Source: a virus. From it: 26,194 nt of DNA. The notes under the pieces are model-generated. The model was not told where the DNA came from. It saw only the letters and a list, made by a program, of their open reading frames with translations, and did not search any database. The stretch lies in UHGV virus genome UHGV-0110177; one strand, written 5' to 3'. Of this stretch, positions 3,144 to 23,976 are shown piece after piece (position 1 is the stretch's first letter; every line of letters starts with the position of its first letter). The translations under genes and the position numbers were made by a program.

Positions 3144-4145
3144 TTAGCCCACGTATTCCGGTTTCATGTCGTCCAGGGTGATGCGGAACTGGTCATACAG
3201 TTCGTCGCCTAAGTGCCGTTTCGCTGTGTGAAGAGTGCCTTCAGCTTTAGCAAACAGTTCCGCCGCTTCTGGTTCTCCGGGATTCGACAGGGAGTTGATA
3301 GCGGCCTCAACTTTATTTTTGGCGTCAACAAGGTAGTAGCGCTTCACCGCTTTATTTTTCAGCTCAGTGAACAGCGCAGTTCCCAGCAACGCTTTCTGCG
3401 ACTCAATATCAGCGCGGATAGCTTTGGCCTGGTCAACAGAGCTTGCTGTGTCAATGCGGTCGCGTAGGTCGTCGGCAACGGCATCAACGTTAGTTGCTGA
3501 TTCCTGCGCGGTAGCGAGGATGCCTGTTTCGCTGGTGATCTCTTCAACAGTCATTCGCGGGGTTGGATTTATTTCGCGCTCAACGCGTTCCTCCAACTCA
3601 TCAGGGGTGTAGACCCCCAAAATCGCCCATGGTGTGTAGGCACGAGCCCAGTATTTCACTTGCAAGTAGCCAATTTGCTGCTTTGGGTTACTTTTCCACA
3701 GGGGCGAGTTTTTGATTGTTACTTCCGAAACGCAGAGCCATTCATTCCATGTAATGTCTTTTTCTCCGCTAATAATTGCGCCAACACGGCACTCCATCAG
3801 ATCCTTTTCGCCACGATATTCATAATGGAATCGCCCCCGTATTGCGCCGGTGGCAGTCAGTACCGCGCTAACTAACTGAGCTTCATATCCTAGAGTGCCA
3901 TTTATAACGTGTGTTTTCTGACCGACTACGTAGGGGTCCATACCCCATCGCGCGGCTTGCATGACAATGGCGAGGCAGTCTGATGGCTTACCCTGAAGAT
4001 GTTTGGGCACAGTAGAAATACCCTGGGACATAACATCAGCAATCTTCATCATGCGATCCATGACATCGCCATTCAGCAGTAACGAGCCATTATTCATTGT
4101 GCTGGGTGCCTGCTGATCAATTACCGCTATGTTTCTATTTTCCAT
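3144..4145 (-). CDS. recT: RecT/Bet(Red-beta)-family single-strand annealing protein (333 aa)
   Basis: Recalled similarity to lambda Bet/RecT core (PLWKSNPKQ...VKYWARAY compared with GPWQSHPKR...CARLA); start is 13 nt after recE stop with SD AAGGGGGAA; classic exonuclease-annealase pair. Confidence 0.65.
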   Translation of the reverse strand: MENRNIAVIDQQAPSTMNNGSLLLNGDVMDRMMKIADVMSQGISTVPKHLQGKPSDCLAIVMQAARWGMDPYVVGQKTHVINGTLGYEAQLVSAVLTATGAIRGRFHYEYRGEKDLMECRVGAIISGEKDITWNEWLCVSEVTIKNSPLWKSNPKQQIGYLQVKYWARAYTPWAILGVYTPDELEERVEREINPTPRMTVEEITSETGILATAQESATNVDAVADDLRDRIDTASSVDQAKAIRADIESQKALLGTALFTELKNKAVKRYYLVDAKNKVEAAINSLSNPGEPEAAELFAKAEGTLHTAKRHLGDELYDQFRITLDDMKPEYVG

Positions 4146-4157
4146 GACTGTTCCCCC

Positions 4158-7049
4158 TTATGCCTGTACGCGCAGCGCTTCAAGGCGGCGCACATCAAAA
4201 TCGTTGAGTTCTTCGGCGTAATCTTCGGTAATCGGCGCTGGCCATTCGCCAGTGTCGAATCCGTTCGCGATGGCGCGCATTGCTTTGCGGTATTCCAGCA
4301 TGCCGAGTTCAAGCAGTTCTTCGGATGCCTCGATGATGGCGATCCAGTGGTAGTTCTCGTCTTTGTTGACGAATATCCAGAAAAACTGGTCCAGCGCTGC
4401 GGTTTCGCAGTACATGGCAGCGCTCAGGTGATAATCGCGATCGATGATTTCCCGGTGCAACTTCGCGCGCAGACCTTCCTGCTTGATATTCCACATGCTG
4501 ATAGTCTTCAGGTCAGCGCCGATGCGCAGGCCGCCCATGTCAATTTCAAGGTCAGGGCGCACGCGGATTTCCAGCCCGGTTTCCTCATCAATACCGAAAT
4601 AGCTCACCTCTACGGCGCGGTTCGGATGCGTCAGCAGCTTCCCGGCGGTCGGGTGATTCAGCAGCGCTTTCTGGATGGCCTGCGCGGTGCTCAACTGCTG
4701 GCGGGTAACCAGAATTTTATCGCCGGGGTTTTCGCGCCATGCGTCAAGCAGCTCGTCGGCAAACACTGTTTCAGGTTTGACGGATTTCACTGCCTGAATC
4801 AGATCCGCTTTGGTGCCGGATACTTTCAACGGCTGTGGCTTCTGTGCTTCCTGTGCAACGAGATCAGGATTGATGATCGCCAGTTGCTCAAGCAGCGCGT
4901 CACGGCTTCCGCTGGTTTTAACCGGCGCGGGCAGGGTGGCGTTGTATTCTTTGATGCAGGCCTTCATTGCCGCTGCTGTATGCTTAGTCCCGTTTTCGAT
5001 GCGCTGGAACTCTTCAGGCAATAGCTCATATGACGCATACGCTTCGTCGACGGATGCCCCAAGCGGTAATGGCGCGGGCAGGGTGGCGTTGTACTCTTCC
5101 AGCAACGCTTTGATATCGTCTGCGGTGAGTAATGCCGGCAGGCTGGCGTTGTGTTCGTCGATAACCGCGCGGATCGTCGCTGTCGTCGTGAGCGCGCCTT
5201 CCGAGATTTCCGGTTCGATGCTGAACTCTTTTTCCAGTTGTTCAGGCTGTAACGCCAGCGCGTGCACCAGGTTCCCCATATCCAGAACTTTGGTGCGTTC
5301 TTTCTGGATGGTTTTGGATACGTGGCGCGCTTCGAAATACATCAGACTTACACGTGCATCTTTGACCATTGTCGAACTGATGCCATTCGCCGCGTGATAT
5401 ACCTCGTTCGGTACGCCTTCATAACGCCCCGGCTCGAAGTATTCCGGCCACACTGACGCTGGCTCTGGTTCTTCCTGTTGCATTTCCGGCACGTTTTGTT
5501 GCGTTTCTGGCTCAGAATGGCTTGCAGAATCGTTGTTCTGGCTCACTTCCGGCTGATGGTGGTCTACATCGGCTTGCTCGCCGGTATCTGCCTCTTCACC
5601 ATTCCCCAAATCACTTTCGCTTGCGAGCAGCGCATCACCAGTCTGTTCTTCATTACCGTCAGTTTCTTGAACCTGCACATCGGCGGCGTCCTCATTTTCC
5701 GTTTTTTCTCCCTCATTTGAGGCGGCGTTGTAGTCTTCATGAACCCACTTCGGATCGTTAGGGTCACTGATACCTTCAACGTAATCACCGCGCGCAGCTG
5801 CGAGTTGTCGGTTTACTTCTTCAACGGATGGTTCATCCTGTCTTACTGGCGTTGGCATAGGCATGGACGAACGTCCGCAGGCAATATCAACGACAAGCGG
5901 ATCGGGATTGGCGTGGTCAGTTTCTGTCAGCACCTTATTCAGGTACTCGCGGTGGCGAAACGGGGATTTGTATAGTTCATCTGGTGTGGTTTTTACTGTT
6001 GCAACGATGCATGCGCGGGAATAGTCCAGACCACCAGGCATTGACACGAACAGTTCGCGCGTTGCCAGCCACTCAGGGTCGTCAACTGCGTTCATGATTG
6101 AGTTAGCCTTTAGTTCGATCTGCAATGGCAGAGAATAAATATCAAATTCGTACTGACGCGCCAGCAGGCCTAAGGCTATTTCAAATTCAAGACCGAGAGT
6201 GGTCTGGGGCATCTTGCGATCGGATGCAATTCCGCCGCCAGCGTTCGCGCCGCTTTCAGTACGCTGAATAGCTGATACACGATTACCTTTGCACCACTCT
6301 TTAACGAGCAACCCGCGATCAATATGAGGGGTATCGAACCATGTTTTCAGAAACTGGATAACGCTTGCCAGCTCAGGGATTTTGCCATCAGCAGGAAACA
6401 CGTTCTTAACGGCATTTACCGCTTTATGGATATCGTGTTCAATGGCCTTTTTGAATGGTTCAACATTCTCAGCCGCAAGTAAAATGTTCTGGACATATGA
6501 GTTATCAGTGTCCATTTCCAGAGCGAGAATTGCTTTTTTCTGCTCTGCATCGACATGATAGAGATACTCGCCATCGCCAATATGTTGGGCCAGTATGCGA
6601 TGACGGAAGGGCATCGTTGCCACAACGGTTAACTGAGGGTGTTCAGGTAGATCGCCATTGTCTTCAGTTGACGCCTGATCGTGCTGGATAATTTCGCCAG
6701 TTTCGGTATCAACACCATCAACGATACGCTGACGGGCGACGGCAACGGCCTCAGAAGAGGGCAGCGTAACACCGGGGATCTGTACCCAGGTCATGTTGTC
6801 TTTGCCGAGCTGGTAGAAATCGCAGAACGTTAAGCTGAGTTCGCCTTCCGGCGGCAGTTCGTTAACGACAGGGAAATTAGTGGCGACAGCTTTAAAATAA
6901 TCTTTCAGCTTTGCGCCGGATTTAATCAGGAGATAATCCAGTGTGGCATTTGCCGATTCAAAATCATCACTGCACCAGAGAACCGCATCTTTTTGTCCTG
7001 ATGATTTTTTTGCTTTGCGGACTAAAAATACAGGATTAGTTCCACTCAT
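4158..7049 (-). CDS. recE: Exodeoxyribonuclease VIII (RecE-like), 963 aa
   Basis: N-terminus from ATG at 7049 (MSGTNPVFLVRKAKKSSG...VLWCSDDFES...DYLLIKSG...KAVATNFPVVN) matches E. coli RecE N-terminus from memory; conserved LNKVLTETDHANPDP...DIACGRSS block; SD GAGGAT upstream; the ORF-track start at 7259 is a 70-codon over-extension. Confidence 0.85.
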   Translation of the reverse strand: MSGTNPVFLVRKAKKSSGQKDAVLWCSDDFESANATLDYLLIKSGAKLKDYFKAVATNFPVVNELPPEGELSLTFCDFYQLGKDNMTWVQIPGVTLPSSEAVAVARQRIVDGVDTETGEIIQHDQASTEDNGDLPEHPQLTVVATMPFRHRILAQHIGDGEYLYHVDAEQKKAILALEMDTDNSYVQNILLAAENVEPFKKAIEHDIHKAVNAVKNVFPADGKIPELASVIQFLKTWFDTPHIDRGLLVKEWCKGNRVSAIQRTESGANAGGGIASDRKMPQTTLGLEFEIALGLLARQYEFDIYSLPLQIELKANSIMNAVDDPEWLATRELFVSMPGGLDYSRACIVATVKTTPDELYKSPFRHREYLNKVLTETDHANPDPLVVDIACGRSSMPMPTPVRQDEPSVEEVNRQLAAARGDYVEGISDPNDPKWVHEDYNAASNEGEKTENEDAADVQVQETDGNEEQTGDALLASESDLGNGEEADTGEQADVDHHQPEVSQNNDSASHSEPETQQNVPEMQQEEPEPASVWPEYFEPGRYEGVPNEVYHAANGISSTMVKDARVSLMYFEARHVSKTIQKERTKVLDMGNLVHALALQPEQLEKEFSIEPEISEGALTTTATIRAVIDEHNASLPALLTADDIKALLEEYNATLPAPLPLGASVDEAYASYELLPEEFQRIENGTKHTAAAMKACIKEYNATLPAPVKTSGSRDALLEQLAIINPDLVAQEAQKPQPLKVSGTKADLIQAVKSVKPETVFADELLDAWRENPGDKILVTRQQLSTAQAIQKALLNHPTAGKLLTHPNRAVEVSYFGIDEETGLEIRVRPDLEIDMGGLRIGADLKTISMWNIKQEGLRAKLHREIIDRDYHLSAAMYCETAALDQFFWIFVNKDENYHWIAIIEASEELLELGMLEYRKAMRAIANGFDTGEWPAPITEDYAEELNDFDVRRLEALRVQA

Positions 7050-7176
7050 TGTTTTATCCTCACTTCGTGTAGAATGGAGGCGCCTTAATGGCACCTCGGT
7101 TTTACCAAGTAGAATGTCCGGTTCGCTTTGGTCGGTTAGACCGGACAGGGCAAGCCCACCTCGTGTGGGCTTTTGC

Positions 7177-7464
7177 TTAATGAACGGTGCTGAAAACTTT
7201 TTCTGAGTAATCGAGTTTGTAGCTGCGGTAGTTGCCAAACCCGGCGTTATCGCCATCACTTACTTTCACGGACAACATTGAAATTGCCTCTACAGCACAA
7301 AGAGGACAGTCGAACTTGCCGAATACATAGCCACCGTCAAGAATGACCGTGACCGCGCCCGTTTCGGCTGAATGAATAACGCCTGATACTTTCTTCTCGC
7401 AGTTGAATACAGCCAATTCTTTATTCACTGCTTTCAGGTTCATTTCGATTTTTACGATTTCCAT
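7177..7464 (-). CDS. Hypothetical phage protein (95 aa)
   Basis: ORF in early-left operon. Confidence 0.5.
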   Translation of the reverse strand: MEIVKIEMNLKAVNKELAVFNCEKKVSGVIHSAETGAVTVILDGGYVFGKFDCPLCAVEAISMLSVKVSDGDNAGFGNYRSYKLDYSEKVFSTVH

Positions 7465-8472: not shown

Positions 8473-8538
8473 TTTTTTGACGAATGTATGGGAGTAGAGG
8501 ATGCTTATGCTCACAAAAACGCCAAAGAGGATGGGTAT

Positions 8539-8742
8539 ATGTCAAACGATGATGAGTTTTTCGCGGAGATGCATCCGCAGATAGCGCAGGTGATCGGTAT
8601 GGCTGTGATGCAGATTCTGGTTGAAGGGCGTGAGATCACAAAGGCAGAAATAATCGAGACGATTCAGGTTCTGTGGCAGGAGGAGCAGGTTGATCTTGCT
8701 GTTGAGTTAGCGCTGGATGTACTAATGCTGCCAAAAGAATAG
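8539..8742 (+). CDS. Small acidic hypothetical protein (67 aa) transcribed rightward from the OL-like region
   Basis: ATG 8539 with SD GAGGA; reading frame continues from the track ORF 8488..8742. Confidence 0.5.
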   Translation: MSNDDEFFAEMHPQIAQVIGMAVMQILVEGREITKAEIIETIQVLWQEEQVDLAVELALDVLMLPKE

Positions 8743-8745
8743 GGC

Positions 8746-8780
8746 AAAAAAAAAGCCCGGAACGTGTCGTAATCCGGGCT
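8746..8780 (-). terminator. Rho-independent terminator for minus-strand transcription (8-bp stem AGCCCGGA/TCCGGGCT, then U9 on the minus strand)
   Basis: Perfect stem plus A9 run on plus strand read directly. Confidence 0.7.
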
Positions 8781-8888
8781 GTAAGTCGGATATATGGTGC
8801 TGTTATTTCTTGTTCATGCACCATAACAGAGCTCGTCTGACCGGAGTGTGTTGTCGCGCATGTTTCAGGGAAAAGACCCCTGCAAAAT

Positions 8889-8966
8889 TCACCAGGCCAG
8901 CATAACCAGTGAAATCGCGGCGACCATAACAACAGTTACCAAGCATACTATCAGATACTCTCTCAT
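8889..8966 (-). CDS. Candidate 25-aa hydrophobic peptide (MREYLIVCLVTVVMVAAISLVMLAW)
   Basis: Only coherent small ORF in a ~300-bp unit bounded by two minus-strand terminators; weak SD; speculative. Confidence 0.25.
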   Translation of the reverse strand: MREYLIVCLVTVVMVAAISLVMLAW

Positions 8967-9093
8967 TATTTTCCAACTGATTATTTGCATCATATATCAA
9001 CAAGGATAGCCTGATTAAGTAGATGTAGCGTGCATGGCTACGAAACAGGCAAGGGTGCAAAGAGGGATGCTGCGGAGTTCGTGAGGAAAGGGC

Positions 9094-9120
9094 AATAAAA
9101 ACCCGGCGTGGTGTCCGGGT
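9094..9120 (-). terminator. Rho-independent terminator ending the repressor operon (stem ACCCGG/CCGGGT, then UUUUUAUU on the minus strand)
   Basis: Hairpin and T-run located 8 nt after the stop of the 118-aa gene. Confidence 0.7.
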
Positions 9121-9127
9121 CGAAGAG

Positions 9128-9484
9128 TTATTTTAGAACAAGTCCATTAAGAGCATCCAGAATTTTTGAAACGTAATTCCCAAAAATATAAGCACAGAAA
9201 GCAAAAATGATGCTCACTACAGCAGCCGATGCTTTTATGGTTGTTTTGGCGGAGCCAATGCCTGTCTCTATTGCCGCTAACCTTGAATCGATTGACTTTA
9301 TGTCAGATTTTACTTCAGCGATATCGCGCTTAATGTATTCAACATCTGACTCAAGCTTTGCAACTCTTGCCTGCATGTCACCACCCCCACCAGAACCATC
9401 ACCGTCTTTGAAGTTAGTATGGGGGGTTACAGCTCTATTTTCAACTGGCGCTTTCGCGGGGTTAAAACTATAAACTTGCCCCAT
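9128..9484 (-). CDS. Tail-anchored membrane protein: Gly-rich linker, coiled coil, C-terminal TM helix (118 aa; alternative ATG at 9376 gives 82 aa)
   Basis: ORF co-transcribed downstream of repressor; ~42% GC versus ~52% in core genes; C-terminal hydrophobic segment AAVVSIIFAFCAYIFGNYV. Confidence 0.6.
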   Translation of the reverse strand: MGQVYSFNPAKAPVENRAVTPHTNFKDGDGSGGGGDMQARVAKLESDVEYIKRDIAEVKSDIKSIDSRLAAIETGIGSAKTTIKASAAVVSIIFAFCAYIFGNYVSKILDALNGLVLK

Positions 9485-9920
9485 TTACGGCATCTCCGGT
9501 GTGATGAATTACATGAAAATAACAGCTATGGCTGTCGATTATTTCGCTTGTCTTATTACCATGTTCATCATTTTTGAAGTTTGTAATTTTGGCTTCATAA
9601 AGCCCCTCTTTACTGAGGTCTACATCGCTGACAAACATAGATGAAATGTAACAAACGTGATCGCTTTCAATGAAGTTGATTGATGATGTTTCAAAATAAC
9701 CATCATCATCATGCATAATGATTACTGTATGATTATTAAATAGAATATCTATTTCAGTGCGTACAAGATGATTTACAGGGACAGAAAAGCCTATAGTGAT
9801 AATCACTGTCTGCAACTCATTTGTAGGAGAGGGGGATAGCATCGGCATGGGCTGATACCACTTAAGCCCCTTTATTCCATCTTTCTGTAATGTGGGATAA
9901 GCAAACAGAATTTTATTCAC
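9468..9920 (-). CDS. AT-rich hypothetical protein (150 aa, GTG start)
   Basis: GTG at 9920 with SD AAGGAAG 8 nt upstream; ~37% GC; sits between repressor and membrane protein. Confidence 0.55.
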   Translation of the reverse strand: MNKILFAYPTLQKDGIKGLKWYQPMPMLSPSPTNELQTVIITIGFSVPVNHLVRTEIDILFNNHTVIIMHDDDGYFETSSINFIESDHVCYISSMFVSDVDLSKEGLYEAKITNFKNDEHGNKTSEIIDSHSCYFHVIHHTGDAVNGASL

Positions 9921-9977
9921 TTGATTGCTTCCTTAACACTTAAAATGTGCCACTAGAGCATGATTTTCAAAAAACGG

Positions 9978-10364
9978 CTATTCTCCGTCACCCTTAATCC
10001 GCCGCCCCATGTACTTGGCGTACAGCTCGTCGAGTTCCTTAAGGCGCAGAGACACGATCCGCAACATGTTCTGCTGCTCTTCTTCCGGCAACTGGCGATA
10101 GAGCTCGAGTAGGCGCTGTTCGTCAGGCTTAAGACCGTCCTTCTCTCCAACATCCTCACCAAGTAGCCAGGGAACTGATACGCCAGCAGCATCTGCAACC
10201 GCTAATGCAGAACTTTTGCTAATAACACCTTTTTTGAACCAGCCGTTTACGGATTGCGGGGTAATCCCCGCAACCCTTGCCATATCAGATTTTGTCATCC
10301 CTCGTTGCGTCAGTTCTGTCAAACGCTCGATGAGAATCGGGTTAAGTATTTTTTTCTCAGCCAT
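9978..10364 (-). CDS. Prophage repressor, HTH (XRE-type), 128 aa, no recognisable LexA-like S24 cleavage domain
   Basis: HTH motif MTKSDMARVAGITPQSVNGWFKKG; divergent from cro-like gene across the operator region; short C-terminal helical domain only. Confidence 0.8.
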   Translation of the reverse strand: MAEKKILNPILIERLTELTQRGMTKSDMARVAGITPQSVNGWFKKGVISKSSALAVADAAGVSVPWLLGEDVGEKDGLKPDEQRLLELYRQLPEEEQQNMLRIVSLRLKELDELYAKYMGRRIKGDGE

Positions 10365-10373
10365 ATCAGAAGA

Positions 10374-10441
10374 ATAAGCCTTTTGCTTATAAATTAAAAT
10401 TCGCTCAGGACTTGATCTTTTGTTAAGTCTGAGGCTTAATT
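10374..10441. promoter_or_regulatory. OR-like operator/promoter unit: palindromes ATAAGCCTTTTGCTTAT (10374-10390) and TTAAGTCTGAGGCTTAA (10423-10439); rightward promoter -35 TTGATC (10412-10417), -10 TTAATT (10436-10441)
   Basis: Inverted repeats read directly; placed between divergent repressor and cro-like genes; cro SD GGAGA follows. Confidence 0.65.
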
Positions 10442-10467
10442 TATTTGTGAATCTAGTGGAGATACTC

Positions 10468-10701
10468 ATGAACGGATTAGAAAAGGCCATTCAGAAAGCT
10501 GGCACTGCCAGCAACTTAGCCGCAAAGCTAGGCATTAAACCGATGTCGGTTAGTCGCTGGAAAACACGATACAAGGGCGTCGTGCCAGCCGATCGTGTTT
10601 TACCAATTTTCAACGCAACTGGTGTTACCCCCCATGAATTGCGCCCTGATCTGTATCCGAACCCCACGGACGGATTACCAGCGCAGGATGCGAGGGCGTA
10701 A
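10468..10701 (+). CDS. Cro/YdaS-like HTH protein (77 aa)
   Basis: HTH (ASNLAAKLGIKPMSVSRWK); first gene rightward of operators; SD GGAGA. Confidence 0.75.
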   Translation: MNGLEKAIQKAGTASNLAAKLGIKPMSVSRWKTRYKGVVPADRVLPIFNATGVTPHELRPDLYPNPTDGLPAQDARA

Positions 10702-10703
10702 CC

Positions 10704-11246
10704 GTGCATTCAATTTCATTTCAACAAAATACCGGGTTTCCTCCAGCCACGATGATAAATCGCAATCAGCCTGATCCGGCGGATAAGCATGACCAGATTC
10801 GGGCTGCCGTTCGTGCGTGGTCGGCATCGCTGGACAACCAGGACGTAGTCGCCGGGATCATCGTTGAGGAATGGGAACGGCAGGGCGGCGCCGGGCTGGA
10901 TTTTCCTGACGACCTGAGCCGTAAGCGGCAGAAGCTTTTCCGCTGGCTGGACAGCGATACCGGATATGCGCGCGAAAACATCCGTCAGCTGACTCCGGCG
11001 ATCCTGGCTGTTTTGCCGCTTGAGTTTCGTGGTCGCCTTATCGGACAGGATTGTTTCATGACGCGTTATGCAGCGATGGAGAAGGAAATCAGCGAGGCGA
11101 AACAGGCCGTAATGCTGAATGCGCCAAAGCATCAACTGGTGAAAGAGGTCAGGGAAGGGATTGAGCATCTGCTGAATATGTTGCCGGGTGATGCTGTCGT
11201 TCAGGTTCTGAGTGGTATCGCGGCCATAGCGCCGGGTGTCATGTGA
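10704..11246 (+). CDS. YdaT-family protein (CII-position regulator), 180 aa from GTG
   Basis: Recalled similarity to E. coli YdaT core (EEWERQGGAGL...LTPAILAVLPLEFRGRL compared with EEYLRQGGGEL...LIPAILAILPRELRHRL); SD GAGGG before GTG. Confidence 0.65.
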   Translation: MHSISFQQNTGFPPATMINRNQPDPADKHDQIRAAVRAWSASLDNQDVVAGIIVEEWERQGGAGLDFPDDLSRKRQKLFRWLDSDTGYARENIRQLTPAILAVLPLEFRGRLIGQDCFMTRYAAMEKEISEAKQAVMLNAPKHQLVKEVREGIEHLLNMLPGDAVVQVLSGIAAIAPGVM

Positions 11247-15639: not shown

Positions 15640-16107
15640 ATGACCACTATTACCAGAGAACAGGCGCAAAAAATTATTGATGCAGCCGACGAGGTGATTA
15701 CCGCGCTGGCCGGAACAAATGAGGATGTACACCCTGAAAGCGACAACATGCTCCGTCTGTGGGATGACCTGAATGACCGTTACGCACCACCAGAAGTTGT
15801 ACGAGAGCTGGCGCGTATCGCGCTGGCATCGCTTACCGCTGAGCCTGTGGCATATGCAGACCCGCAGTCATTCGACAATTTCAAGAGCATGGGCGGGAAA
15901 AACGCTGCGTGCACTAAAGAGTGGATGTGGCGAGATTCCGGTGAGGATCTGATTCCTGTCTACACCGCCCCGCCAGCGCCGGCAGTACCAACATTCGACG
16001 AATGGCTGGAAATTCGCGGTAACAAGCCGCTTGGATGGGTCAAAGATGCCATGCGTGAATCGTATGACGCCTGCCGCGCCGCAATGCTTAACGGAGGTAA
16101 ATCGTGA
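15640..16107 (+). CDS. Hypothetical protein (155 aa)
   Basis: ORF in operon. Confidence 0.55.
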   Translation: MTTITREQAQKIIDAADEVITALAGTNEDVHPESDNMLRLWDDLNDRYAPPEVVRELARIALASLTAEPVAYADPQSFDNFKSMGGKNAACTKEWMWRDSGEDLIPVYTAPPAPAVPTFDEWLEIRGNKPLGWVKDAMRESYDACRAAMLNGGKS

Positions 16108-16619
16108 AAACTATCCAGTTATCAGAGCGTGAACTTTCCATGATTTTCAGCATGCTGACGCCGCCGTACTGCGCTGAAGATATTCGCTCTGACGAGTTCA
16201 ACGAATTGCGTAATAAAGTCTTTTACGCTCTGCGTGATGCAAGGAACGATGAACTTGTAAGTAATCGTGATGAGTTGCCTGAAGAAAAAGGCGCATCTCT
16301 CCAACTGCGTAATTTAATCCGGCGGCGCCATGCTGAATGGTCTGATGCCACGTTCGGAAATGTTGGTCCTGTTGGTCCACTTAAGCACCTGTCGAAAGAG
16401 GCGCTGGAAGCCGCAGCAGAACCTGACGACCTCAGCGAGTGGGCTGATATGCAGTTCCTGTTATGGGACGCCCAGCGGCGCGCTGGTATCTGCGATGGTG
16501 AAATCACAGCAGCAATGGAAGAAAAGCTGAAAGTGAATATGGCGCGCCAGTGGCCAGAACCGAAAGACGGAGAACCACGGCTGCACATCAAAGCGGATCA
16601 ACAGCAGGAGCACAAGTGA
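16104..16619 (+). CDS. Protein with DUF550-like (dATP/dGTP pyrophosphohydrolase-like) C-terminal region, 171 aa
   Basis: Motif HAEWSDATFGN...LKHLSKEALE...EWADMQFLLWD recalled as DUF550-like; GTGA-coupled start with SD GGAGGT. Confidence 0.55.
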   Translation: MKTIQLSERELSMIFSMLTPPYCAEDIRSDEFNELRNKVFYALRDARNDELVSNRDELPEEKGASLQLRNLIRRRHAEWSDATFGNVGPVGPLKHLSKEALEAAAEPDDLSEWADMQFLLWDAQRRAGICDGEITAAMEEKLKVNMARQWPEPKDGEPRLHIKADQQQEHK

Positions 16620-21011: not shown

Positions 21012-21143
21012 AGCCCGAAGTTATTGAGTCTCTTCGCTGGCGCTGGCTGCGTCTTTGCATTTATCGCTACCGGGGATCTTTTCCGGTGGCATACCGCATC
21101 CTTCGCAATTACATCCGCATTGAAGCAAAACGGGAGCATCGAA

Positions 21144-21941
21144 ATGAAGCTTGAGTCCTTACCAAAATATTTTTCGCCTAAATCCATGATGCCCGGCGCT
21201 GTTCCATGCGGTATTTCAGCAGATACGCTGACTATTACTGACGTAATGGCATCCCTCGGGCTACTTTCCGCAAAAGCAGCGGTGGGTATTGAATTGTATC
21301 TGGCAAAAGCCGGGGTTTTATCTTCAGACAATATCATTGCCTACATCAAGAAGCTGGCAGAGCAGCGCGCAGAACGGCACGGATCGCTGCGGAAAATGGA
21401 AGAGAGTGAACGATCAAAATTTCTCGGTATTCTGGCGCGGTATGTTTTCCGCGATTATTCCCTCAGCGCGGCAAGCCTGGTGACGTGCAGTAGCTGTCAT
21501 GGCGCTAAATTTATTGATGCTGAGGTTTTCACGAACAAGGTTACTTACCCGGATGGTAAGCCACCAAAATGGGTAAAAGATACGAAAGGCATTTCTCCTT
21601 CTGACTGGGAAGTGTGGAAATCAGTACGTGAGCAAGTGCGCGTCGTGTGTAAGACGTGCGATGGTAAAGGCCATGTGAAAAACGAATGCCGTTGCCGGGG
21701 GCGCGGAGAAATTCTCGATAAGAAAAAATCAGAGTTGCAGGGCGTTCCGGTTTATAAAAAATGCCCGAGATGCAAGGGAAGAGGTCACCCACGCCTCAAA
21801 GATACCGAGATTTTTAAAGCGCTGGGAGTAACGGAAATGGTATGGCGGTACAACTATAAACAGTTTTTCGATCGGCTGGTGGAGCATTGCCATATTGAGG
21901 AATCCTATGCAGAAAAGGTTCTGGGAAACGTGACTCGATGA
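21144..21941 (+). CDS. Late-gene antiterminator Q-like protein (265 aa) with CxxC zinc-binding motifs
   Basis: Position immediately upstream of promoter plus short terminated transcript and lysis genes; CKTCDGKGH...CRCRGRG...CPRCKGRGH; SD GGGAG 7 nt before ATG. Confidence 0.6.
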   Translation: MKLESLPKYFSPKSMMPGAVPCGISADTLTITDVMASLGLLSAKAAVGIELYLAKAGVLSSDNIIAYIKKLAEQRAERHGSLRKMEESERSKFLGILARYVFRDYSLSAASLVTCSSCHGAKFIDAEVFTNKVTYPDGKPPKWVKDTKGISPSDWEVWKSVREQVRVVCKTCDGKGHVKNECRCRGRGEILDKKKSELQGVPVYKKCPRCKGRGHPRLKDTEIFKALGVTEMVWRYNYKQFFDRLVEHCHIEESYAEKVLGNVTR

Positions 21942-22751: not shown

Positions 22752-23024
22752 ATGAAGATGGACGAAAGATACAGCAACGCGACATACGGCAGCGCTGGTC
22801 TTGCGGCTTTCTTTGCCAGCCTGTCATTGCAGGACTGGGGCTTCATCATTGGCGTCGCTTTCAGCATCATCCTCGGCGTCCTGACATACAGGCTCAATAA
22901 GCGTGAGCAAATGAAGCGCACGAAGATACTGCAGGACATTCTGAACAAGACTGATTCAAGCAACCCATCTGCTACAGCCAAAGTTCTCGCCGATCTCGGA
23001 CAGAAAGCACCGAAGGAAATCTGA
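22752..23024 (+). CDS. Holin, two TM domains, pinholin-like (90 aa, MKM dual-start motif)
   Basis: Resembles phage 21 S21 pinholin pattern; SD GGAGAGAGA; precedes SAR endolysin. Confidence 0.7.
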   Translation: MKMDERYSNATYGSAGLAAFFASLSLQDWGFIIGVAFSIILGVLTYRLNKREQMKRTKILQDILNKTDSSNPSATAKVLADLGQKAPKEI

Positions 23025-23512
23025 TGAACAGCACCATGCGAAATAAAATTGCTGCCTCCATCGGTGGCGGTGCGATTGCTATCGCAACAGTCATGCTGTC
23101 AGGTAAAGATGGTCTTGAAGGTCGAGAATATGTGGCCTACCGAGATGTTGTCGGAGTGCTGACCATCTGCGATGGCCACACCGGATCCGACATAATCCCC
23201 GGAAAGCGATATACCGATAAGGAATGCGAAACACTAACCCGGAAAGATTTAACGCGTATTGCCGCGCAGGTTGATCCACATATCAAAGTGCCGACTACTG
23301 AAACTCAACGAGCAGCGATTTACTCTTTCGCGTACAACGTTGGCGCTTCTGCGGCCATCAACTCAACACTGCTGAAAAAACTCAATGCCAAAGAATACGC
23401 AGCGGCATGCGAAGAATTAAAGCGTTGGGTGTATGCCGGTGGTAAGAAGTGGAAAGGCCTGATGAATCGTCGCGATGTTGAGTATGAGGTTTGTACCTGG
23501 AGCCAGAAATGA
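23024..23512 (+). CDS. SAR endolysin (T4-lysozyme-like muramidase with N-terminal signal-anchor-release domain), 162 aa
   Basis: Gly/Ala-rich N-terminal TM ([18 protein letters not shown]) followed by catalytic E...D...T ([23 protein letters not shown]). Confidence 0.85.
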
Positions 23513-23976
23513 GCAGGTTAACCGCAATCATCATCGCTTTTGTCGTCTGCATCATCGTATCTCTTGGCTGGGCTGTTAACCACTACCGCGATAACGCCAT
23601 CACCTACAAAGACCAGCGCGATAAAGCCACTGAGAAACTCAGCCTGGCGAACGCCACCATCAAAGACATGCAGACCCGCCAGCGTGATGTTGCTGCGCTG
23701 GATGCCAAATACACGAAGGAGTTGGCAGATGCGAAAGCTGAAAATGATGCTCTTCAGCGTAAGCTTAATAATGGTGGTCGGGTGCTCGTCAAAGGCAAGT
23801 GTCCAGTGCCAGCCTCAACCGAAGCCGCCAGCACCTCCAGCTTGGGCAATGATGCCACCGTCGAACTCTCTCCAGCTTCTGGACGCAACGTTCTCGGTAT
23901 CAGAGACGGAATCATCAGAGATCAGACAGCACTGAGAACCCTTCAGGAATACATCAATACGCAGTGCCTGAGGTAG
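23509..23976 (+). CDS. Rz: i-spanin Rz (155 aa)
   Basis: Strong recalled similarity to lambda Rz ([14 protein letters not shown]...[26 protein letters not shown]); ATGA overlap with endolysin stop. Confidence 0.85.
23729..23935 (+). CDS. Rz1: o-spanin Rz1 lipoprotein embedded in +1 frame of Rz (68 aa)
   Basis: [19 protein letters not shown] lipobox plus Pro-rich [11 protein letters not shown] as in lambda Rz1; SD GAAGGAG. Confidence 0.75.

Follow-up and report, generated by a model that had tools for sequence, protein, structure and literature searches.

A prophage repressor-adjacent gene pair of unusual cassette architecture as a candidate exclusion or abortive-infection module

What two small genes placed directly downstream of a prophage repressor contribute to the phage or to its host is the question raised by the virus genome UHGV-0110177, of which a stretch of 26,194 nucleotides (one strand, hereafter the window) was analyzed. 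A first-pass annotation, made from the sequence without database searches, had proposed that these genes, here termed geneA and geneB, are a lysogen-expressed exclusion or abortive-infection pair in the position that holds rexAB in phage lambda. The reading that we favor, with a probability of about one half, is that they form a two-component module that is transcribed together with the repressor in the lysogen and most likely protects it from other phages. The pair is therefore presented as a candidate for a repressor-adjacent two-gene exclusion or abortive-infection module with an unusual cassette architecture.

geneA (9468-9920, minus strand) encodes 150 amino acids from a GTG start, and geneB (9128-9484, minus strand) encodes 118 amino acids from an ATG start. 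The two open reading frames overlap by 17 nt, and a Shine-Dalgarno sequence was found 5' of both genes, that of geneA being AAGGAAG at 8 nt before the start. They follow the repressor gene (9978-10364, minus strand) after a gap of 57 nt, which agrees with the first-pass placement of two genes on the repressor strand directly downstream of it. The repressor of 128 amino acids matches the helix-turn-helix (HTH) family HTH_3 of Pfam (E 2.9e-7) and phrog_8 (E 2.9e-18) and has no S24 domain. A YdaS/Cro-like gene (10468-10701) and a YdaT/CII-like gene (10704-11246) are divergent from the repressor, and the three genes make up a Rac-type immunity region. On the model of lambdoid architecture, the operator and promoters of the PRM/PR type presumably lie in the divergent control region (10365..10467, no strand), which by the gene layout separates the repressor from the Cro/YdaS-like gene. 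The same element was found in a Citrobacter koseri chromosome (L002), where it adjoins phoPQ.

The repressor is the first gene of the leftward immunity transcript. A terminator scan identified an intrinsic terminator (9094..9121, minus strand) consisting of a hairpin (9121..9100) followed by TTTATTG. The hairpin has a 7-bp stem with five G-C pairs and begins 7 nt past the geneB stop; it closes the repressor-geneA-geneB unit, and the shared terminator claimed in the first-pass annotation was thereby recovered. A scan for consensus promoters called none between the repressor and geneA, nor in the repressor/cro control region, expected PRM included. The scan is insensitive here, since no promoter was called even in the divergent control region. 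By analogy with lambda, geneA and geneB are likely to be expressed in the lysogen.

The two genes are strictly paired. Of 83 loci with a geneB relative (B), 82 carry a gene for 90-160 amino acids directly upstream on the same strand (A), and the A-B spacing is mostly between -17 and +3 nt. A programmed frameshift fusion of A and B was considered and dropped, as the overlap length differs between loci within this range. The A partners belong to an immunoglobulin-like (Ig-like) superfamily comprising several classes that are not linked by BLAST, geneA's among them, to a zinc-ribbon class with the pattern CPxC...CxxCG (22 loci) or to a rare class of 90 amino acids. Identity between A classes was 13-40%, and the core of main-type B proteins had an identity of 61-88%. 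In loci L053, L054, L058, and L065 the B-type gene follows an Arc/Mnt-like ribbon-helix-helix repressor; the partner in L058 and L065, of 90-95 amino acids, represents the third class and is unrelated to the Ig-like and zinc-ribbon classes.

Locus scans with the A alignment added five new loci, and a genome scan with the B alignment gave 11 loci. In loci L095-99, which were located from the A side, A was again paired with a B-type protein. The nearest relative of geneA (P0165, 37% identity) is found in the same layout as in the window, with YdaT-YdaS, an HTH_3 repressor, A and B. A distant A protein encoded after a tail-fibre assembly gene (P0141) is followed by a protein with a Gly/acidic linker, a coiled coil and a transmembrane (TM) segment. 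Among 30 representative upstream neighbours scanned (of 54 distinct sequences), repressors predominate: 18 matched HTH_3, 15 Peptidase_S24 and 6 Phage_CI_repr, and one Arc-like protein, one integrase and one DUF6246 protein were also present. The pair thus occurs beside integrases, Arc-like repressors and tail-fibre assembly genes as well as beside HTH repressors; it is autonomous and is found at other moron sites too. It was found in Enterobacterales and Pasteurellaceae, with distant relatives in Pseudoalteromonas, Shewanella, and Pseudomonas, and is present in Salmonella phage epsilon34 (gp45/gp44), in g341c and in enteropathogenic Escherichia coli (EPEC) E2348/69.

We compared the repressor-A-B-terminator DNA with 110+ fetched loci by blastn. 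The similarity was confined to two regions, one reaching up to the repressor stop and one that begins within the Gly run at geneB codon ~32 and includes the terminator. The spacer, geneA and geneB codons 1-31 had no DNA match among these besides the C. koseri element and metagenome copies. Accordingly the repressor is the conserved left flank, and the terminator part of the conserved right flank, of a variable cassette (9393..9977, minus strand) that consists of the 57-nt spacer with its Shine-Dalgarno sequence, geneA and geneB codons 1-31. The cassette coincides with a trough in GC content, which was 0.366 for geneA and 0.42 for geneB relative to 0.492 for the whole window; at this value geneA is among the lowest 0.4% of windows of its size. 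The first-pass figure of ~37% GC for geneA was thus accurate (36.6%). From the composition of the pair it had been suggested that both genes were acquired horizontally, and an exchanged stretch of low GC does exist, but it covers geneA and the first 31 codons of geneB and not two whole genes. Because the similarity skips only ~9393-9977, we take the low GC to mark a swappable cassette rather than two wholly foreign genes.

Exchange could be followed in both directions. In L012, L014, and L031/L100 both flanks were kept while the class of A was different. Conversely, the epsilon34 and E. coli types share A and the B N-terminus at ~77% DNA identity; the similarity stops at B codon ~39, and the coiled-coil/TM parts are unrelated. 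The A subfamily of the window was also found with another TM module (L088, L096-99), where a related N-terminal B peptide of the pattern M-G/A-Q/R-V/M-Y/F-x-F ... H-T-x-x-F/Y is kept. Related B N-terminal peptides were found solely beside these relatives of the same A subfamily. Mantel tests on 19 non-redundant A-B pairs showed that A identity correlates with identity of the B N-terminus (r = 0.59, p = 2e-4) but not with that of the B core (r = 0.06, p = 0.28), and the B N-terminus and B core were uncorrelated (r = 0, p = 0.5). The Gly-rich linker, judged from sequence, appears to be both a flexible joint and the recombination junction between the variable and conserved parts. Since the N-terminal peptide of geneB sits on this flexible linker and changes with geneA, it is proposed to be a geneA-binding tether.

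A word-indexed protein search with geneA returned only one match, a 99%-identical protein from C. koseri. That geneA is an orphan was nevertheless ruled out by an exhaustive profile search and by significant phmmer matches obtained with geneA alone. geneA and the small genes upstream of geneB relatives share, end-to-end, an N-terminal K-I-x-F-x-Y-P strand, a G-x-Y motif and a C-terminal Y-F-x-V motif. A profile of the partner genes matched 237 clusters at E<1e-3 among 1.84 billion representatives, nearly all of them 130-155 amino acids long and matched over their full length. With geneA alone as the phmmer query against the profile hits, and E-values scaled to the whole library, 22 matches had E<1e-3, the best being 5e-23. 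An hhalign comparison of geneA alone with the E. coli-type A alignment had given a probability of 39%, and was superseded by the intermediate sequences. None of the superfamily hits carried a name or a Pfam domain.

The AlphaFold2 (AF2) model of geneA, built with the superfamily alignment, is a seven-strand beta-sandwich (pLDDT 92, pTM 0.85) that superposes on solved Ig-like domains, and geneA has no hydrophobic leader. geneA is read as a cytosolic Ig-like protein and belongs to a large unannotated superfamily. The geneA profile also matches giant proteins of 600-6700 amino acids (P0122, P0127, P0132, P0150, P0170, and others) by way of short repeats. These are presumably Ig-like repeat adhesins; the matches support the assignment of the Ig-like fold but probably do not reflect functional homology.

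geneB matches phrog_6136, a known but uncharacterized phage protein family, over its full length (E 2.6e-29; residues 15-118 against profile positions 18-120 of 120). In a large protein database 90 homologues were found across Enterobacterales, many of them carrying the NCBI name 'hemolysin XhlA'. The first-pass view that neither protein matches a recognised family stands as far as defence models are concerned, since no PADLOC match was found, but not otherwise, geneB being a phrog_6136 member and geneA a member of the Ig-like superfamily. The homologues share a common plan of ~25-35 variable residues, a Gly-rich run of the GGGNGGG type, a near-invariant RVAKLESDVEYIKRDI, further coiled coil, one hydrophobic helix and a short tail. 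In geneB the variable N-terminal peptide (MGQVYSFNPAKAPVENRAVTPHTNFK) comprises residues 1-26 (9407..9484, minus strand) and the Gly-rich linker DGDGSGGGGD residues 27-35 (9380..9406, minus strand). The coiled coil with the near-invariant motif follows in residues 36-82 (9239..9379, minus strand), and residues 83-118 (9131..9238, minus strand) hold the TM helix (~83-104) and a short C-terminal tail (SKILDALNGLVLK).

The anatomy of geneB given in the first-pass annotation, a Gly-rich linker, a coiled coil and a C-terminal membrane anchor, was reproduced by computation. The a/d heptad is unbroken from V41 to I83 (V41 L44 V48 I51 I55 V58 I62 I65 L69 I72 I76 A79 I83), and the best 19-residue hydropathy window, residues 83-101 with a Kyte-Doolittle value of 2.08, is the sole hydrophobic segment. 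AF2 predicted residues 36-118 as one long helix with pLDDT >90 and the first 33 residues as disordered. Invariant in the family are E45, Y50, I51, R53, D54, R68, and E73 in the coiled coil and F101, G102, Y104, and N113 in the TM/tail part. Searched against the PDB, the family profile matched only trimeric parallel coiled coils (P22 gp26 needle, SadA, sigma-1, and Lpp); these matches reflect composition and not homology, and point to a trimeric stalk as a hint. geneB lacks a signal peptide, and its chain continues for only 14 residues past the TM helix. Most of the protein would thus lie on the cytoplasmic side of its C-terminal anchor, and geneB is predicted to be a tail-anchored inner-membrane protein.

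The relationship to XhlA needs care. Pfam XhlA (PF10779) scored 20.3 bits against geneB, with a gathering cut-off of 34.7 (E 6e-4, residues 37-83). Proteus-type relatives have precomputed PF10779 hits, and the one scored here gave 23.9 bits. A tblastn search of phage genomes with the Proteus-type B protein gave no match, probably because of low-complexity masking. With a sub-threshold score and a different genomic context, geneB appears to be at most a remote XhlA relative. The name has given rise to one rival explanation, namely that geneB is a lysogenic-conversion or virulence factor acting as a cell-associated haemolysin, as was proposed for the XhlA-domain gene of lambda-like Mannheimia phages. 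The NCBI product names and the 2015 Mannheimia paper (PMC4553209) speak for it, yet the proposal rests on a shared name, the source of haemolysis in that paper being the Xenorhabdus XhlA work that it cites (PMC4553209). geneB itself, lacking a signal peptide and extending just 14 residues past its TM helix, is poorly suited to such a role. The Xenorhabdus XhlA is reportedly a large protein secreted by two-partner secretion, and Pfam XhlA instead models the small PBSX membrane protein. The virulence reading looks like a name-transfer error, and we consider a haemolysin role very improbable.

The same distant similarity (Pfam E 6e-4, and the precomputed hits of Proteus-type B proteins) could be taken to mean that the pair serves the phage's own life cycle, either as an XhlA-type helper of lysis or lysis timing or as a membrane input to the lysis-lysogeny switch. 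Lysis by PBSX requires the membrane protein XhlA together with the holin XhlB (PMC5589764), and the distant link is consistent with geneB acting on the membrane. The position next to the repressor likewise speaks for this explanation. Against this, the pair lies on the strand and transcript of the repressor, far from the lysis genes of the window, lysozyme and Rz (23024-23976), which follow Q on the opposite strand. Its presence beside integrases and tail-fibre genes and the hypervariability of A are likewise unexpected for a housekeeping phage function. The pair is also dispensable, as the following comparison of repressor-adjacent genes shows, and a life-cycle accessory is in our view improbable.

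In E. coli prophages the homologous pair encodes 145 and 123 amino acids, starts 7 nt after a cI gene for 237 amino acids and is followed by N. Of 5426 complete genomes, 16 have this E. coli-type pair, EPEC E2348/69 being one of them. The E. coli locus (L004:4500-6900) aligns with phage lambda (J02459 35570-38255) through its flanks, in two pieces of 92% identity, one on the cro-cI side and one on the OL/PL side. The interval that these flanks enclose is occupied by rexA-rexB in lambda and SfI and by hicB-hyp-hicA in mEp234/HK106. The three cargos in one lambda-type immunity frame are a natural experiment on cargo exchange. In epsilon34 the pair gp45/gp44 lies between the repressor gp46 and the annotated OL/PL, with the start of the A gene overlapping the repressor stop. 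Relatives of the window repressor were found with other cargo as well: the one of E. coli CRE444 is followed by an unrelated gene for 117 amino acids, that of SEN34 by a second HTH gene, and that of mEp237 by further genes with an HTH annotation. The term 'rexAB-equivalent position' is therefore correct in the strict sense, since the homologous pair of E. coli prophages occupies the very place between a lambda-type cI and PL that rexA-rexB occupy in lambda and SfI, and cargo turnover in the slot was observed. The cI-N interval has been described as a hotspot of mosaicism with rexAB and bstA, a defence gene, among its contents, and the promoter that reads it is among the most active of a prophage in lysogeny (PMC8585504).

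The finding of hicBA in this slot brings in a further explanation, that geneA and geneB are a toxin-antitoxin or addiction pair stabilizing the prophage without a dedicated anti-phage role. Here geneB would be a holin-like toxin and geneA its cognate antitoxin, and the variability of A and of the B N-terminus would keep co-resident pairs from cross-talk. Tight translational coupling with the putative neutralizer encoded first, and the cognate co-variation of A with a segment of B, fit this explanation. No homology of geneA or geneB to type II toxin-antitoxin families was found, a stable Ig-like domain of 150 amino acids would be unusual as a labile antitoxin, and two unrelated A folds with the same B core fit sensors better. 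Many toxin-antitoxin systems are in any case phage defences, so that the explanation overlaps with the one favored here. On balance we regard a plain addiction role as rather unlikely.

From genomic context and architecture we infer an exclusion or abortive-infection role for the pair. We read it as sensor and effector because a variable partner of two folds is combined with a conserved membrane partner and a partner-specific peptide, because of the slot and the other moron sites, and because the lysis cassette is separate. geneA would be a fast-diversifying cytosolic sensor or specificity subunit and geneB, with its conserved coiled-coil and TM core, the effector, whose first ~30 residues would serve as the cognate tether holding geneA. 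In the resting lysogen the tether-bound geneA would keep the geneB rods inactive. A protein of an incoming phage would engage geneA, whereupon the rods would associate by way of the coiled coils, probably with trimers as the first step, and perturb the inner membrane. Collapse of the membrane potential would then abort the infection, making the pair a functional RexA/RexB analogue built of unrelated parts. More broadly, and more tentatively, the loci may represent an unrecognized large family of plug-and-play prophage anti-phage modules, in which a sensor cassette, made of an Ig-like or zinc-ribbon protein and the matching tether peptide, is joined at the Gly linker to an exchangeable tail-anchored effector, so that RexAB-like logic would have been reinvented with unrelated proteins.

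Several points weigh against the sensor-effector reading. Neither protein, nor any relative from the other classes, matched a model in PADLOC-DB 2.0.0 (best E 0.005-0.06), so there is no homology support for a defence role. The weak 'CorA-like' match in that range was dismissed as coiled-coil composition, as were matches to models of the Mak/Nhe/XaxA pore formers (E ~0.02). A single TM helix with a periplasmic tail of 14 residues is a minimal pore former, and a trimer of such helices gives no obvious channel. When A and B were fused through a (GS)15 linker for AF2, the B N-terminus was not docked on A and had a pLDDT <50 in this region; the input was a partly paired alignment in which MAFFT had misplaced parts of some unpaired rows. 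The co-variation of A with the B N-terminus could also be explained by linkage alone, without protein contact, because the two adjoin on the DNA and recombination at the linker and core DNA gives the same pattern. As no promoter was called, co-transcription is argued from spacing and from the lambda analogy.

The absence of pore-like features in B besides one TM helix would fit a mechanism in which the cell survives. In such a superinfection exclusion at the membrane, the Ig-like subunits would be kept just beneath the inner membrane by the anchored rods and would there bind and block ejection or pilot proteins, or DNA entry. The gene layout and the lysogenic setting speak for both mechanisms alike, the geometry of a flexible tether on a long, membrane-anchored coiled-coil stalk would suit the task, and a hypervariable binding subunit would suit the recognition of diverse phage proteins. 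Of the known injection blockers (SieA, Imm, Cor, and HK97 gp15), most work in the periplasm or at the outer membrane, or are themselves polytopic, whereas A and B would be almost wholly cytoplasmic. Moreover, the distant relative XhlA acts with a holin in membrane damage, and the free exchange of the coiled-coil/TM module suggests a generic effector over a precise docking site. We therefore hold exclusion at the membrane to be a less probable mechanism.

No paper within reach of the search deals with the pair, although Brenes and Laub (2025), on E. coli prophage defences, may name it. Literature searches gave nothing on the accessions of the E. coli or epsilon34 pairs and nothing tying XhlA to defence, and the pair is absent from the DefensePredictor text and supplements. 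If the pair defends lysogens, present defence finders overlook a system that is widespread, the geneA profile alone matching hundreds of clusters. It would also be a very small and dissectable sensor-effector defence with naturally swappable parts, an Ig-like sensor of 150 amino acids, a tether of 30 residues and a rod of 80 residues, in which the coding of specificity, and the way in which a single-pass membrane protein can stop a phage, become approachable questions. The 'hemolysin XhlA' label behind the virulence reading of these genes is also corrected.

The window, which corresponds to IMG/VR contig UViG_3300045988_081801, is otherwise an ordinary lambdoid prophage arm with int, RecT, RecE, O, P, Q, lysozyme, Rz, and TerS. 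The RecE-like exonuclease (4158-7259, minus strand; 1033 amino acids; its C. koseri copy matches Exonuc_VIII) is acidic and of low complexity over a long middle part, and with the adjacent RecT gene (3144-4145) constitutes a Rac-type recombination module. A small open reading frame convergent with the pair (8488-8742, plus strand) had no Pfam match at E<=1e-4; the matching position holds DUF2767 in the C. koseri copy and a gene annotated as fumD in E. coli CRE444. Between it and the terminator of the module lie ~350 nt without a convincing open reading frame (8743-9093), and the DNA similarity to other loci runs into this stretch. A dATP/dGTP pyrophosphohydrolase-family gene (16104-16619) is located in the nin-like region, and the Q antiterminator (21024-21941) has a weak, sub-threshold match to the DnaJ-type CXXCXGXG zinc finger; both look like ordinary lambdoid cargo. 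Short repressors like that of the window (9978-10364) are also encoded upstream of the pair in L012, L014, L031, and L043-L052. They lack S24 and share a C-terminal helix, LLELYRQLPEEEQQNMLRIVSLRLKELDELYAKYM, and prophages carrying them may possibly be induced via an antirepressor.

The pair can be compared with several known systems. The likeness of geneA to the Ig-like AGS-C domain of a Pycsar cyclase (PDB 9ard) is generic for the fold, with 7% identity, and hundreds of Ig-like domains are equally alike; unlike geneA, which is free-standing, the AGS-C domain is fused to an enzyme. PBSX XhlA (PF10779) resembles geneB in its small size and its build, with a coiled coil in the cytoplasm and a single TM helix after it. 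It differs in that geneB is located in an immunity region and not in a holin-endolysin cassette, and in that geneB has in addition a variable peptide at its N-terminus, with a Gly-rich linker behind it, and a partner encoded upstream that is obligatory.

Lambda-like phages of Mannheimia haemolytica (535AP2, 3927AP1, and others) show the same layout, with cI followed by a zinc-ribbon protein and an XhlA-domain protein with one TM helix. In vB_MhS_3927AP1 (L117, KP137439 41765-43345) these are cI, a zinc-ribbon protein of 126 amino acids and an XhlA-domain protein of 161 amino acids. They are unlike the pair of the window in that the A partner is a zinc ribbon and the TM helix of B is central, with a long C-terminal coiled coil behind it. 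The only published mention that we found noted the XhlA gene alone, as a possible virulence haemolysin (PMC4553209).

With BstA of the Salmonella prophage BTP1 the likeness is one of position, both being repressor-adjacent and closed by a terminator. BstA is encoded directly downstream of the repressor, has its own terminator, is highly expressed in lysogeny and acts by abortive infection, and its authors stress the repressor-adjacent slot as a defence hotspot (PMC8585504). It is unlike the pair in being a single protein unrelated to geneA and geneB, and as far as the account given there goes it localizes to sites of phage DNA replication and not to the membrane (PMC8585504). Two-gene modules offer a comparison of another kind, one of composition. 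Butters gp30/gp31 and Sbash gp30/gp31 of mycobacteriophages are said to be prophage-expressed two-gene defences near the immunity region that combine a cytosolic and a membrane protein. The membrane partner in these is multi-pass, and neither the sequences nor the hosts are related to those of geneA and geneB.

The closest parallel is RexA/RexB of lambda. The slot is the same, the E. coli homologous pair replacing rexAB between flanks of 92% identity, and so is the order of a cytosolic and then a membrane protein, in a unit that is read with cI and ends at a terminator. According to the Rex model, as summarized in one account, a cytosolic sensor activates a membrane protein that collapses the membrane potential (PMC8585504). 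The likeness does not extend to the proteins, as there is no sequence similarity and no Rex family was among the Pfam, NCBIfam, PHROG, and PADLOC matches. Pfam does contain models of both RexA and RexB. RexB is polytopic, unlike geneB with its single TM helix at the C-terminus and its long coiled coil, and RexA is larger than geneA, an Ig-like domain of 150 amino acids. To our knowledge cassette modularity of this kind is not known for Rex. If the pair defends lysogens, it would shed light on RexAB by analogy, combining the same slot and the same logic with simpler parts.

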